From NCBI GenBank assembly GCA_963977185.1, contig CAXBNV010000004.1, forward strand, positions 51,848 through 115,847: a DNA stretch of 64,000 nt, in the 5' to 3' direction. Source of the DNA: an uncultured Gammaproteobacteria bacterium. GTDB taxonomy: Bacteria; Pseudomonadota; Gammaproteobacteria; JAGOUU01. Position 1 is the first letter of the stretch. Each line of letters opens with the position of its first letter. A program made the position numbers and the translations under genes. The notes under the pieces were generated by a model that did not search any database, had not been told where the DNA came from, and saw nothing but the letters and a program-made list of their open reading frames with translations. This document shows positions 43,418-47,965 of this stretch, piece by piece.

Positions 43418-46400
43418 ATGAACGGCAAAGATAATTCTTTCTTAAATCAATGCAAGAAAAATTTAATAAACACATCAGCAAAAAATAATAATTTGATCAA
43501 TTTTAACTTCCAAGCAGCTACATGTTTTGATTTCAATAAATTTTCAAAGTCTGAAAAAAATCGAAAAAATAGTTTAATTGAAATTGATAAGACTGACAGA
43601 AATAATTCTACAGACGATTTGAGTGAAAAAGAAAAATTGCATCGAGAAGCTCACAAAGTTCTTGGTAAGATATACGTAAAACAAAAAGAAATTAAAGATG
43701 AAAAAGGATTTAATCCAACAAATTGGGCATGTTCTTTTTTTAAATATAAAGATGGTGATAAAGAAAGGTTTGCCCCAGTTTACTTAGTATCAGCTGAGGT
43801 TTCTAAAAATGGCTTAGGTGGTTATGCTGTAAATGACTTTAGAAAAGGAATTGTTGAAGTCAGTTTTAATCATGTAATATATGAGAAATTTAAAAATGAT
43901 TTAAAAGTAAATTTAGAAAAAAATCTTACCGACTTTGATGATTCTGAAGTTAATATTAAAGATGTTGAACAAAAAATATTAAAAATTCAGAGCTTTTTAG
44001 CTGATAATGTTCATGTTCACGGAATTACAATTGAAAAGGGATATGTATTAGGTATATTCAACAATGCTAAAGCTTCATTATACAATGAGTTGAATGAGCT
44101 TGAAGATCAATTTTTACAACATGATCTAGTTAAGATATTTCTTTCAAATGAAAGTCATGAGTTAAATCAGGGAGAACTTTCAGAAGATGCTCGCGAGATC
44201 GATAAAATACAATCTGATAATTTTTTTAGCCCATTTGATTTTGATTCTTCTCAACTTCAGGCAATTAAAGCAGCTAAGGATGGAAAAAATTTTGTAATAC
44301 AAGGGCCTCCTGGAACTGGTAAAACTCAAACTATATCTAATATAATTTCTGAATTGGTGGCAGAAGGGAAAAAAGTTCTTTTTGTTGCTGAAAAAAAAGC
44401 TGCTATTGACGCGGTACTTAAAAATTTTTCTAAAATAGGGCTTGAAAAAGTATTTCTTGATTTACATGACAAGAAGTCAAAATCCAAAGATATAGTTTCT
44501 CAGGTTATTGACTCTATAGAGTTTTTTAGTAATGAAAAGTCTATAAATCGCTCTTCAATAAAGATATTATCTAAGCTTGATCAAGCTAAAAAAGAATTAA
44601 GCAAAAGAACTGAATTGCTTCACCAGGAATTGAGTTTTGGTAAAAAACCTTTTGATTTGTTTTTTGAATTAAGCGAGATGACAGATGTTGATAATATAGA
44701 AGGTAATTTCTTTGTTCAATTATCTGAAGAAGATTTTAATGAATGCTTAAATATTTTAGATCAAATTAAAGAATTGCCCGATATTTATTTAGATTCAGAG
44801 AATCCTTTCTTAAATAGTGATTTGAGCAGAATGAATATTTTTCTTGAGAATAATAAAGGGCAAAAATATTTATCAAACTTAAAAACTTTGATCTTAGAAA
44901 CAAAATCAAAGACTTTAAAATTAATCGAGGCAGAGAATAGAATTGCAAAGTCAGAGCAAATATTAGGTAATTATGGCCTTCATATTCAAAAATTTGAAAA
45001 ATATGATGAATTGCAGTTGGTATTGGAATTATTTAAGGAGGCTTTGCCCTACAAAGATTTACTTGAAAATAATGATAACCCTTGGCTAAAGAAGCCAATT
45101 AATAACCCTGAACTTTTTGATACAGCCAAAGCTAAAAATGCTTTGGAAGAAATTAGAGAATTGTTAATAGAAAAAATTGCTAAGGAAGAAGAGCTAAATT
45201 TATTGCAATCAACCATTTATGATTTGGAAGAAGGATTTAAACAATTTAGTTTTATTAAAGATGAAAATTTTAAATTAAAGAATTCTATAAATATTTTTGG
45301 TAAAATTAGAGATTATCAAGATATAATTAAAAACTATAATCAAAAATGGTTTCATGTAAGGTTTAAAGATAACTGTTTTGAAAATGGTGACTTTTTAGAA
45401 GATTTGGTAAAAAAACTTGATCTGTTAATTACAAATACCAATTTGCTTTCAGATCTTGAGTTTGAATTGGGTAATTTAAATAAACATAATTGTAGGTTAA
45501 ATTTTTATCGATTGTTAAATAATCTTATTAGAAAAGTAAAGATTGTTGCCAATATTAATAAAACAAAATCCAGAATATCATCCTTGAAAGAATGGATTTT
45601 ATTTCATTTAGAACTAAATGATAATAGCAACTTTCTTGATGACATTTCTTTTCTGAAGGATGGATTGATTTTTATCTCGCAAAATAAAGATATTTTAAAC
45701 TTCAAAGCTTTACAAAATAAAATTAAAGAAGAGGAGTTGGATGATTTTTTTTGGGATACCATTAAAAAAGGAGCGGATTTTGATTATGAAAAGCAGATTT
45801 TAGAAAGTTTGTATGTAAAGAGATTATCACTAGGTAAAATACAAGATTTATTAGCCCCCCTAGATAAAGATCTGGAAACATCAAAGAGAAATATAAAAGA
45901 TAGTTTATTTGATATTGTAGATCAAGATCAAAATTTAAAAAGTGATATAGAACTTAGAATAAAATATATTGAAACTACTTCATCAATAATTACCGCTCAG
46001 AACTTAATTAAAGAAATTGAACAAAAAGTCCACTTATTAGGCATCACTGAATTTTGGCAAAGTGTTTGGTCAATTAAATGTAATTTAAATCAAATAAAAT
46101 TGGATATTCAGGAGTACTTCAGTAATAAATCTTTAGCTGAACTTTTGAATTCAGAGGTTTTTGATAATAACAATAATATTGAATTGCGATTAGATTTTAT
46201 ATTCGGTTGCCTTGAATCAGAAAGTCATACTTTAGAAGATCTTAATTTTTTAGAAGAAAAAGTAAATTTTTATACAAAATATTTACCAGTATTACATAGA
46301 TCTGTTCGTTATCTAGAACTAAAAGATAATCTTGATAATTTTTCTCTTAAAGAATTTTGGAACAATGTTGTAAAAAATAAAATTTCACAAAGAAAAATTG

Positions 46401-47965
46401 AGAAAGTTTTTAGGAAAAGTTTTTATTCTTATATTTTACAAAATCTAATAATCAAAAACGAATTAATTTCTGATACCAAGGCTACGTCTGAAATAATAAA
46501 TGATTTTAAATCCTTTGATAAACACTCAATTCAAATAAACAAAAAAAGAATCATTGAGTCGATTAAAAAAAATAGTTCGAAAATTGTTGCAGATTATGAC
46601 TTTCTTAAGCTGAAGAATCGGCAAAGGTTTCCAAAGGCTCGTAAACTTATTTCTAAATATCATGACATTATTGTTAATTCAGTTGGATGTGTGGTATGCA
46701 GTCCACTTACAATTTGTGAGTATTTTGAAGTTAATAGATTTGATTTTCGGAATCCAATATTTGATGTAGTTATTTTTGATGAAGCTTCACAAATTTTTAC
46801 TTGGGATGCATTAAGCTCTATTTTTAGAGCAAAGCAAATGATTATTGCTGGTGATACGCAGCAAATGCCACCGACTAATTTATTTGCATCTAATGATAAT
46901 GGTGATGACTTTGATGAAAATGATGAAGATACTGAAAACGTTAATGATTACAGAGGTCTCCTATCATTTGCCGCGATGAGATTAAGAGAAATTCAATTAC
47001 AATGGCACTATCGCAGCAAATTTGAGCAACTTATCCACCCATCAAATCAATTTGTCTACAATGGCCGTTTAATTAGCTTCCCCAATTCTGATAATAATGA
47101 GAAACCTATTGTTTTTCATTATCTTCCTGAAGGGATGTGGGTTGATCAAACCAATGATGTTGAAGCAAACTATTTGATAAATTTACTAAAAAATACTTAT
47201 AAAACAGGGGTAAAATCAGTAGGGGTTATCTCTATCAATAAAAGACAGCGAACATTGATTAGAGATTTAATATATTGTGATGAGGAATTAACTGAATGGT
47301 TAGATCGTGATGACTCAGATGGGTTGTTTGTTAAAAACCTTGAAAATTGCCAAGGAGATGAAAGGGATGTCATTATTGTTTGTAGTTCCTATGCAAAAAA
47401 TAAAGATGGTAGAATAGACGGAAGAATGTTTGGGCAAATGAATAAAGATGACTCTTACAAAAGATTAAATGTAATGTTTTCTAGAGCCAAGGAGAGGTTG
47501 CACTTTTTAAGCTCTTTAAAATGGCAAGATATATCATCTCAATATGAAGGAAAGAAGGGGATGGATTTTTTCAAGAGTTATTTACGTTTTGCTGAAACTG
47601 GTGATTTTGGAATCACTTCAAAAAATCATGTTAAGCAAGATAGTTTTGATAGTGGTTTTGAAGAGAGTGTTTGTAAATCATTAAGATTGCTAGGTTATGA
47701 AATAGATTCTCAAGTTGGATGCTCAGGTTACAAAATAGACTTGGCTGTAGTATGTCAAAATACAAAAAATTACATTTTAGGAATTGAATGTGATGGCGAA
47801 ATGTATCATTCAGGAAAAACAGCGAGAGAAAGAGATAGGCTTCGTCAAGAAGTTCTTGAATCTAAAGGTTGGAATATTCATAGAATTTGGTCTTATGATT
47901 GGATTTACTCTAAGAAGAAAGAGTTAAAGAAACTTAAAAGCAAAATTGATACATTAATAACATAA
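43418..47965 (+). CDS. 1515-aa Upf1-like SF1 helicase (AAA_11/AAA_12-type) with a C-terminal DUF559/Vsr-like PD-(D/E)xK nuclease domain. Candidate Nhi-like defence protein.
   Basis: Walker A QGPPGTGKTQT (nt ~44301-44330). About 800-aa coiled-coil insertion. Walker B VVIFDEASQI and GDTQQMPP (nt ~46770-46870). Motifs V/VI NCQGDERDVIIV and LNVMFSRAKERLHF. C-terminal YKIDLAVVCQNTKNYILGIECDGEMYH...GWNIHRIWSYDW. Confidence 0.75.
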   Translation: MNGKDNSFLNQCKKNLINTSAKNNNLINFNFQAATCFDFNKFSKSEKNRKNSLIEIDKTDRNNSTDDLSEKEKLHREAHKVLGKIYVKQKEIKDEKGFNPTNWACSFFKYKDGDKERFAPVYLVSAEVSKNGLGGYAVNDFRKGIVEVSFNHVIYEKFKNDLKVNLEKNLTDFDDSEVNIKDVEQKILKIQSFLADNVHVHGITIEKGYVLGIFNNAKASLYNELNELEDQFLQHDLVKIFLSNESHELNQGELSEDAREIDKIQSDNFFSPFDFDSSQLQAIKAAKDGKNFVIQGPPGTGKTQTISNIISELVAEGKKVLFVAEKKAAIDAVLKNFSKIGLEKVFLDLHDKKSKSKDIVSQVIDSIEFFSNEKSINRSSIKILSKLDQAKKELSKRTELLHQELSFGKKPFDLFFELSEMTDVDNIEGNFFVQLSEEDFNECLNILDQIKELPDIYLDSENPFLNSDLSRMNIFLENNKGQKYLSNLKTLILETKSKTLKLIEAENRIAKSEQILGNYGLHIQKFEKYDELQLVLELFKEALPYKDLLENNDNPWLKKPINNPELFDTAKAKNALEEIRELLIEKIAKEEELNLLQSTIYDLEEGFKQFSFIKDENFKLKNSINIFGKIRDYQDIIKNYNQKWFHVRFKDNCFENGDFLEDLVKKLDLLITNTNLLSDLEFELGNLNKHNCRLNFYRLLNNLIRKVKIVANINKTKSRISSLKEWILFHLELNDNSNFLDDISFLKDGLIFISQNKDILNFKALQNKIKEEELDDFFWDTIKKGADFDYEKQILESLYVKRLSLGKIQDLLAPLDKDLETSKRNIKDSLFDIVDQDQNLKSDIELRIKYIETTSSIITAQNLIKEIEQKVHLLGITEFWQSVWSIKCNLNQIKLDIQEYFSNKSLAELLNSEVFDNNNNIELRLDFIFGCLESESHTLEDLNFLEEKVNFYTKYLPVLHRSVRYLELKDNLDNFSLKEFWNNVVKNKISQRKIEKVFRKSFYSYILQNLIIKNELISDTKATSEIINDFKSFDKHSIQINKKRIIESIKKNSSKIVADYDFLKLKNRQRFPKARKLISKYHDIIVNSVGCVVCSPLTICEYFEVNRFDFRNPIFDVVIFDEASQIFTWDALSSIFRAKQMIIAGDTQQMPPTNLFASNDNGDDFDENDEDTENVNDYRGLLSFAAMRLREIQLQWHYRSKFEQLIHPSNQFVYNGRLISFPNSDNNEKPIVFHYLPEGMWVDQTNDVEANYLINLLKNTYKTGVKSVGVISINKRQRTLIRDLIYCDEELTEWLDRDDSDGLFVKNLENCQGDERDVIIVCSSYAKNKDGRIDGRMFGQMNKDDSYKRLNVMFSRAKERLHFLSSLKWQDISSQYEGKKGMDFFKSYLRFAETGDFGITSKNHVKQDSFDSGFEESVCKSLRLLGYEIDSQVGCSGYKIDLAVVCQNTKNYILGIECDGEMYHSGKTARERDRLRQEVLESKGWNIHRIWSYDWIYSKKKELKKLKSKIDTLIT

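Follow-up and report, generated by a model that had tools for sequence, protein, structure and literature searches.

Hhe, a single-gene anti-phage system of E. coli and Klebsiella that joins a helicase to a Vsr endonuclease and reportedly goes back to Gao et al. 2020, is together with ProA and PDC-S37 the nearest described relative of the gene analyzed here. Hhe is active against lambda, T3, T7 and PhiV-1, and its nuclease mutant E1731A loses defence (10.1101/2022.06.16.496414). In a genome-wide phage knockout study, Bas63 g40 and seven DNA-metabolism genes of T7 class II acted as its triggers, and several phage counters to it were reported (PMC11482910); an anti-hhe gene is present in phage DruSM1 (10.1101/2024.04.14.589459). 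The gene in question, called X here, encodes a helicase-nuclease of 1515 amino acids (aa) in a 64,000-nucleotide stretch of contig CAXBNV010000004.1 (assembly GCA_963977185.1, positions 51,848 to 115,847 of the forward strand) from an uncultured Gammaproteobacteria bacterium. This whole stretch is referred to as the window, and coordinates are given within it. In a first-pass annotation, made from the letters alone, X had been put forward as a candidate for anti-phage defence by one protein, with a satellite-type island as its carrier. Family matches, the island itself and the contexts of relatives support this proposal: X is probably a stand-alone helicase-nuclease directed against phages or other mobile DNA, carried as cargo by a satellite resembling phage-inducible chromosomal islands (PICIs) at a tRNA-Asn gene of an AT-rich marine gammaproteobacterium.

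Structure and family placement of gene X

The open reading frame (ORF) of X runs for 1515 codons from an ATG without interruption, as had been read in the first pass. At the ~28% G+C of the surrounding DNA, stops make up roughly 8% of random triplets, and arithmetic from base composition gives a probability of ~1e-57 for a frame of 1515 codons to stay open by chance. The gene and its parts are as follows.

43418..47965, plus strand: gene X, 1515-aa helicase-nuclease (ORF, translation, family matches)
43418..44152, plus strand: DUF4011-type alpha/beta N-terminal domain, aa 1-~245
44225..44482, plus strand: first part of RecA1 with Walker A GPPGTGKT at aa 296-303 (motif, AAA_11 match)
44483..46684, plus strand: all-alpha insertion splitting RecA1, aa ~356-1089
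44918..46117, plus strand: variable central module of the insertion, aa ~501-900
46685..47587, plus strand: second part of RecA1, and RecA2 (Walker B, motif III, QGDERD, SRAK)
47657..47947, plus strand: C-terminal Vsr-like PD-(D/E)xK nuclease, MTES_1575/DUF559 (D1441, E1457, D1459)

Among the Pfam models, MTES_1575 (PF18741) matched residues 1414-1510 (E 4.2e-35, 120.1 bits against a cut-off of 38.2), AAA_12 matched residues 1193-1365, and AAA_11 matched residues 275-400 and a second stretch. The DUF4011 match on residues 32-132 is marginal (22.4 bits against a cut-off of 22.2) and that of DUF559 is weak. All four models that the first-pass annotation had named (DUF4011, AAA_11, AAA_12 and DUF559) were thus found, and its reading of a superfamily 1 (SF1) helicase with a C-terminal Vsr/DUF559-like nuclease is borne out by AAA_11, AAA_12 and MTES_1575. 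The SF1B motif set (Walker A, DEAxQ, GDxxQ(L/M)PP, QGxExD and (S/T)RA(K/R)) is complete in X, with Walker B (VVIFDEASQ) at residue 1117, motif III (GDTQQMPP) at 1145, motif V (QGDERD) at 1312 and SRAK at 1355; every helicase motif quoted in the first pass was recovered in its stated place. The C-terminal nuclease signature reads IDLAV...IECDG (E1457/D1459)...GWNIHRIWSYDW, and D1441, E1457 and D1459 are invariant in the clade of X and align with the IECDG motif of Hhe. Both ATPase and nuclease motifs are intact in X and invariant or nearly so across the clade, inside which the first part of RecA1 is 83-90% identical. The RecA1/RecA2 fold is nearest to Upf1, IGHMBP2, Sen1 and DNA2.

Defence-model libraries had been suggested as a further check, and X strongly matched their anti-phage profiles. 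In PADLOC, PDC-S37 was the top match (E 1.6e-214, 713.6 bits) and Hhe was also matched (E 2e-115, 384.6 bits), while in NCBIfam the best match was antiphage_ProA (NF058533; E 1e-212, 709.6 bits), along with Hhe_antiphage (NF042953; E 2e-158, 529.4 bits). The curated equivalog cut-offs are 2000 bits for Hhe NF042953 and 1500 bits for ProA NF058533, and X misses both (529.4/2000 and 709.6/1500, respectively). Five other clade members are also sub-threshold, with 677-754 bits to ProA and 514-534 bits to Hhe. As a positive control, the PGAP-annotated Klebsiella Hhe scored 2743.8 bits on the Hhe model. Comparison of the X clade with a Klebsiella-Hhe-anchored alignment in hhalign gave a probability of 100%, with E 6e-174 and 1300 aligned columns. 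Because the hhalign match is strong but the scores fall far below the cut-offs, sequence comparison places X as a genuine member of the Hhe/ProA/PDC-S37 superfamily outside both named families, in a third, separate and compact lineage.

X and Hhe share a collinear order of DUF4011 N-domain, insertion-split Upf1-like SF1 helicase and Vsr/MTES_1575 nuclease; their nucleases carry the same IECDG catalytic motif, and both are single genes found on mobile DNA. In hhalign, residues 76-1514 of X align collinearly with 217-1776 of Klebsiella Hhe. Identity between the two is nevertheless only 27-32% and restricted to the two ends, and the central ~400 aa of the X insertion cannot be aligned to Hhe. X is ~380 aa shorter, with a shorter N-region, and it stops ~20 aa past the nuclease, whereas Hhe runs on for ~115 aa (DUF3320-type) and a haloarchaeal DUF4011 protein extends even further past this point. 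No PF11784 (DUF3320) match was found with Pfam in X or its close relatives.

With ProA, a single alignment stretch spans X residues 74-1513. In the ProA profile (1903 positions), the match is preceded by ~450 N-terminal positions in the case of X and by about 360 in that of other clade members, and ~200 positions at the C-terminal end are without counterpart in X. The PDC-S37 profile is similar to X in length (1550), and its best stretch pairs X residues 934-1513 with profile positions 756-1341/1550, a match for which no curated cut-off is given; the N-terminal half of X matches less well, and the profile extends ~200 positions past the end of X. Many larger superfamily members (ProA/DUF3320-type, e.g., P0033, P0101 and P0118) have an extra N-terminal domain with a conserved TCLDL...GHA, read from the consensus of alignment A5 (~360 columns), which both X and Klebsiella Hhe lack. 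The domain may resemble a transglutaminase-like cysteine-protease fold.

More distant are Upf1, IGHMBP2, Senataxin/Sen1, ZNFX1 and DNA2, whose small 1B/1C insertions contrast with the ~730-aa helical domain of X. Identity to Upf1-like helicases and DNA2 is 17-26%, in the core only, and the DNA2 nuclease is N-terminal and RecB-like, whereas that of X is C-terminal and Vsr-like. The first-pass annotation had likened X to the staphylococcal Nhi, which is also one protein with an SF1 helicase and a nuclease acting as a single-protein defence. The Nhi nuclease is N-terminal, and Nhi is not known to carry DUF4011 or a long insertion. No Nhi model was among the nine PADLOC matches of X (E<=0.1), in a library whose Nhi content is unconfirmed. 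According to the PADLOC and NCBIfam matches, Nhi was rejected as the closest family in favour of Hhe, ProA and PDC-S37. The novelty implied in the first pass was likewise overstated: X has the architecture, down to the giant insertion, of the Hhe family, which has been validated and is present in defence databases, and it forms no new category. What X adds is a compact lineage of Hhe-type single-gene defences, ~1500 aa long and without the DUF3320 tail.

The satellite island and its cargo

X lies in a 12.8-kb element bounded by a 38-nt repeat that consists of the 3' 24 nt of tRNA-Asn and 14 nt downstream. The features of the element, apart from X, are as follows.

41818..41855, no strand: attL, 38-nt perfect direct repeat (repeat search)
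41988..42848, minus strand: KilA-N protein, divergent from X (Pfam KilA-N, E 7e-21)
42977..43005, plus strand: best sigma-70-like promoter match, TTGACA-17-TATAGT, 11/12 (consensus match only)
43067..43303, plus strand: 78-aa ORF upstream of X with an N-terminal signal-peptide-like segment (sequence)
47976..48410, minus strand: small terminase, Sf6-like (Sf6_terminase, E 6e-35; phrog_1482, E 2e-35)
49731..52098, minus strand: replication module (Pfam; PHROG DNA helicase/primase families)
49731-51842, minus strand: Toprim + DUF3987 primase-helicase of this module (DUF3987, E 2e-89)
51820-52098, minus strand: CHC2 zinc-ribbon ORF of this module (Pfam)
52111..52314, minus strand: AlpA-family regulator/excisionase (Phage_AlpA, E 2e-6)
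53183..54400, minus strand: P4-type tyrosine integrase (Arm-DNA-bind_3, Phage_int_M, Phage_integrase)
54576..54613, no strand: attR, second 38-nt copy, overlapping the tRNA-Asn 3' end (repeat search)
54590..54665, minus strand: tRNA-Asn (GTT), integration target (ARAGORN, Rfam)

From the tRNA inwards, the order is integrase, a 244-aa ORF, AlpA, CHC2 and Toprim/DUF3987, 131-aa and 189-aa ORFs, the small terminase gene terS, and X; beyond X toward attL come the 78-aa signal-peptide ORF and the divergent KilA-N gene. Neither Pfam nor PHROG matched the ORFs of 131, 189 and 244 aa. With the repeats at tRNA-Asn and genes for integrase, AlpA, primase/DUF3987 and small terminase, the satellite-type island of the first-pass annotation is supported, and its terS-like neighbour is confirmed (Sf6_terminase, above). 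Its small envelope neighbours are confirmed in part: the 78-aa ORF lies inside the island, but two membrane ORFs of 189 and 315 aa (40232-41745) are located beyond attL, along with SSB, an MFS transporter and UvrA.

Four of the five core components of PICIs in SatelliteFinder are present in canonical order (integrase, regulator, primase-replicase and small terminase). A capsid-morphogenesis gene was not recognised in the island by Pfam or PHROG, and a non-homologous analogue is possible; type B PICIs have no such component (PMC10085698). In PICIs, accessory genes usually sit after terS (PMC10085698), and X, directly after terS, occupies this usual accessory slot; the two genes are convergent, with the end of terS 11 nt from the X stop codon. 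These gene classes are also known from satellites described in the sea (PMC9618062). The island therefore resembles PICIs and marine virion-encapsidated integrative mobilizable elements (VEIMEs) in being a 12.8-kb att-flanked tRNA element of canonical gene order with accessory genes after terS. Compared with PICIs, it would be of 'type B' for want of a recognised capsid-morphogenesis gene. Its G+C (28.8%) equals that of the host.

The KilA-N protein matches a PHROG 'transcriptional regulator' family (E 4e-59) and, over its full length, PADLOC PDC-S22 (E 1.7e-128, residues 6-276 on profile positions 3-275/281), so that the accessory region holds two defence-candidate genes. The locus is thus a clear marine example of a PICI-like satellite with a PDC-S37-like and a PDC-S22-like candidate in its accessory slot, which supports a role for satellites as defence carriers outside enterobacteria and staphylococci. 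The 78-aa ORF had no Pfam, PHROG or PADLOC match, and no homologous small ORF was found beside relatives of X.

The best promoter-like site precedes the 78-aa ORF and X; in all, the region has 57 such sites, a number not far above the 47.8 expected from shuffling. Just downstream of this site, a 28-nt near-palindrome, ATAATTCAAAATAAGCTTTTTAAATTAT, is present at 43016-43043 and recurs with 93% identity at 52748-52775, within the 244-aa ORF between int and alpA. ATAATTCAAAATAAGCTTTTTAAATTAT could be a candidate operator coupling cargo expression to the satellite regulatory region. Paired TTACCCAA(T/G) motifs 12 nt apart are located just inside both island ends (41907-41927 and 54426-54446), where they may be candidate arm-type integrase binding sites. 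The window-wide count of TTACCCAA(T/G) is 25 against 24.8 expected, and TTACCCAAT was rejected as an enriched motif since its count is that of chance; only the paired placement at the island ends is notable.

Two related contigs break off at the island borders. One (ERZ3421961 NODE_2285, L021 1-40) starts inside the 38-nt att repeat, and the other, NODE_96 of the same sample (L015), is a 147-kb contig from a 99%-identical strain that ends exactly at the SSB stop codon. Assembly breaks on both sides of the island suggest strain-variable content between SSB and tRNA-Asn.

Distribution, genomic contexts and function

The nearest named homologues of UvrA are ~63% identical and all from Gammaproteobacteria; the host is an uncultured, very AT-rich marine gammaproteobacterium. 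The exact X sequence was found on 24 contigs from Tara and other marine assemblies. Relatives of X, with their identity to it, were found in the following contexts.

P0001, 100%: same satellite as in the window
P0002, 69%: P4-type integrase, AbiEi, AbiEii, NTase/HEPN, AAA_13 ATPase, X, GmrSD_C
L001, 65%: Rickettsiales metagenome-assembled genome (MAG), between ddl-ftsQ and panE
P0004, 63%: between argS/SPOR and dus, adjoining an IS91 transposase
P0003, 63%: between pgi and ftsJ
P0005, 59%: AlpA-containing island, then an Mrr_cat nuclease
P0014, 48%: between fumarase and alanine racemase, with RhuM, in a Rickettsiales-like genome

None of the seven contexts agree, and several are beside defence genes or integrases; at two of the loci, the G+C of the gene is lower than that of its flanks by 7.5-9 points. 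An accessory gene that moves horizontally, often together with defence genes, shows such a pattern. According to the first-pass annotation, a conserved housekeeping synteny of orthologues would have spoken against defence. No conserved synteny was found among the 48-69% identical relatives, and given the lack of a shared context and the drop in G+C, the defence hypothesis is not refuted. Nor was a small partner ORF conserved beside the relatives, which fits a single-gene system, and a two-gene system was rejected on the same observation. The compact lineage circulates in AT-rich uncultured marine and freshwater Proteobacteria, across class boundaries.

Several alleles depart from the intact form. 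A Tara scaffold allele (L005/L020) has an in-frame 6-nt deletion and encodes 1513 aa. In TARA_SAMEA4396988 scaffold_1749 (L019 1-3154, corresponding to window ~44819-47965), a 7-nt insertion near codon 881 frameshifts X and splits it into ORFs of 888+ and 621 aa. These variants represent either natural inactivation or assembly error. The homologue in the Rickettsiales MAG (L001 10001-13738, CANNFC010000003.1; 65%, 1245 aa) keeps the DUF4011, Walker A and nuclease parts and has no AAA_12 (RecA2) match; its G+C of 25.8% is ~9 points below its flanks, and the gene is probably decaying. Loss of this kind is typical of costly defence genes, and the disrupted or truncated alleles of the X clade fit such a gene.

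What we infer for X comprises its defence activity, trigger, substrate and the role of its insertion, and the steps might be connected as follows. X would survey DNA through the DUF4011 N-domain and the large helical insertion, whose fast-evolving central module would be the likeliest determinant of the recognised cue; phage replication or recombination intermediates, or phage DNA-metabolism proteins, may act as triggers. The Upf1-like SF1B motor would hydrolyse ATP and translocate 5' to 3' on single-stranded DNA, and this translocation would deliver or license the C-terminal Vsr-like PD-(D/E)xK nuclease. The nuclease would then nick or cleave DNA and stop phage replication, possibly at the cell's cost. 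On a satellite, such a gene could shield the host, and hence the satellite, from non-helper phages. That satellites carry defence cargo is established from work on PICIs and P4.

Several observations weigh against a defence function of X or against the mobility of its satellite. X is far under both equivalog cut-offs, so that function was transferred at the superfamily level only, and protection by the protein expressed alone, with the nuclease active site required, is known for E. coli Hhe only. PDC-S37 and PDC-S22 are candidates only, and our literature search found no paper describing PDC-S37, PDC-S22 or ProA, nor a structural or biochemical mechanism for Hhe, which one study suggests to be linked to NAD+/adenine metabolism. 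In P. aeruginosa, a large DUF4011 gene belongs to the conserved core and is present in all isolates (PMC10250203), and superfamily membership alone is therefore no proof of defence. Furthermore, several close relatives sit between housekeeping genes without a recognisable mobile-element gene nearby. IMG/VR yielded neither a close relative of X nor any relative of the satellite primase, and hence no evidence of encapsidation; searches of JGI metagenomes with the empty attB junction and the tRNA-att sequence gave no matches, and look-ups of the flanking genes found no unoccupied integration site.

The convergent placement of X and terS, 11 nt apart, would also suit a factor in the satellite life cycle that damages the replicating DNA of the helper and redirects packaging, like the nicking nuclease of the PICI-like element (PLE) against ICP1. 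Satellites do encode helper-targeting nucleases (PMC9410903), the intact 1515-aa allele is present on 24 contigs, and the island, X included, was seen on most of the contigs read for FUSC_2, a neighbouring gene. We nevertheless regard such helper interference as improbable: the position after terS is the usual accessory slot and not a core slot, and close relatives occur without a satellite backbone, as lone insertions at housekeeping sites or in integrase-linked defence clusters, so that the function of X is independent of a satellite. About as small is the chance that X acts, instead of on phages, against other mobile DNA such as plasmids, competing satellites or integrative elements, or that it selfishly stabilises its own island. 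Helicase-nuclease fusions act on DNA structures and not on phage-specific molecules, relatives are found on plasmids and in mobile islands, and no sequence feature separates phage from plasmid DNA as the target. The only experimental data for the superfamily, however, are anti-phage phenotypes with phage-encoded triggers and counters, and no conserved partner resembling a toxin-antitoxin system was found.

Least probable, and in our estimate very much so, is a housekeeping helicase-nuclease of repair or replication (Dna2-like end or flap processing) that came to lie on the island by chance. Its 48-69% identical relatives share no synteny, gene G+C is below that of the flanks at two loci, truncated or frameshifted alleles exist, and X itself lies inside an att-flanked element in the window. 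Its distribution is moreover patchy across classes, with a gammaproteobacterial host according to UvrA and a 65% identical copy in a Rickettsiales MAG. Stand-alone defence against phages or mobile DNA remains the explanation that we favour for X.

The helical insertion and other features of the window

The ~800-aa insertion was called unusually long in the first-pass annotation. Walker A and Walker B are 821 aa apart in X, compared with 935 aa in Klebsiella Hhe and 622 aa in the haloarchaeal DUF4011 protein; a long gap is thus a hallmark of the family, and the length of the insertion was rejected as a distinguishing trait of X. The insertion had also been described as K/E/L/N-rich and coiled-coil-like. 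It is indeed rich, in K, N, I and L, but its composition is near that of the whole protein, so this richness mostly reflects the AT-rich genome. The structure prediction that had been proposed for it was made with AlphaFold2, which predicts residues ~356-1089 to be an all-alpha region inserted into RecA1, with many helices of 30-45 residues. No counterpart of this fold was found among solved structures, and the 2026 PDB copy holds no solved structure of any full-length relative of X.

Clade members share 76-90% identity in their catalytic modules against 27-42% across residues 500-950, with few gaps, and the central ~400 aa of the insertion evolve at ~2x the rate of the rest of X. Against Hhe-type proteins, hhalign posteriors (of 9) are 5.5-8.9 for residues 76-500 and 900-1515 and ~1 for residues 500-900. 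A phmmer search with aa 401-1100 against 1.84 billion representatives gave 11 matches at E<=1e-3. The strongest were previously identified close relatives of X, and most covered only the last ~240 query residues, with P0014 alone matching over the full length. A word-indexed search with the same query gave 2 matches, low-complexity words having probably swamped the index. According to these alignments, the insertion consists of conserved 'arms' and a centre of ~400 aa (residues ~500-900) that evolves fast and is specific to the clade.

A tentative proposal, which we hold to be rather doubtful, is that this central module is an exchangeable, fast-diversifying sensor cassette in a conserved helicase scaffold, selecting the phage cue by which the nuclease is licensed. 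In that case the superfamily of Hhe, ProA and PDC-S37 would be an immune receptor of modular, 'sensor-in-the-motor' type, and the compact satellite-borne lineage, lacking the accessory domains at both termini, its minimal functional form and a good handle on mechanism. X is the smallest version known from nature, and with its conserved scaffold and its variable core mapped, it is a practical target for cryo-EM and domain swaps.

Elsewhere in the window, three tandem ORFs of ~590 aa (21147-26598, plus strand) without a Pfam match immediately follow a type II secretion (gsp) operon, with gspD/E/F/L at 10028-19530. Their proteins may be secreted. Between the first two, identity is 85% overall, and long blocks of 100% identity alternate with diverged blocks, a mosaic that looks like gene conversion.

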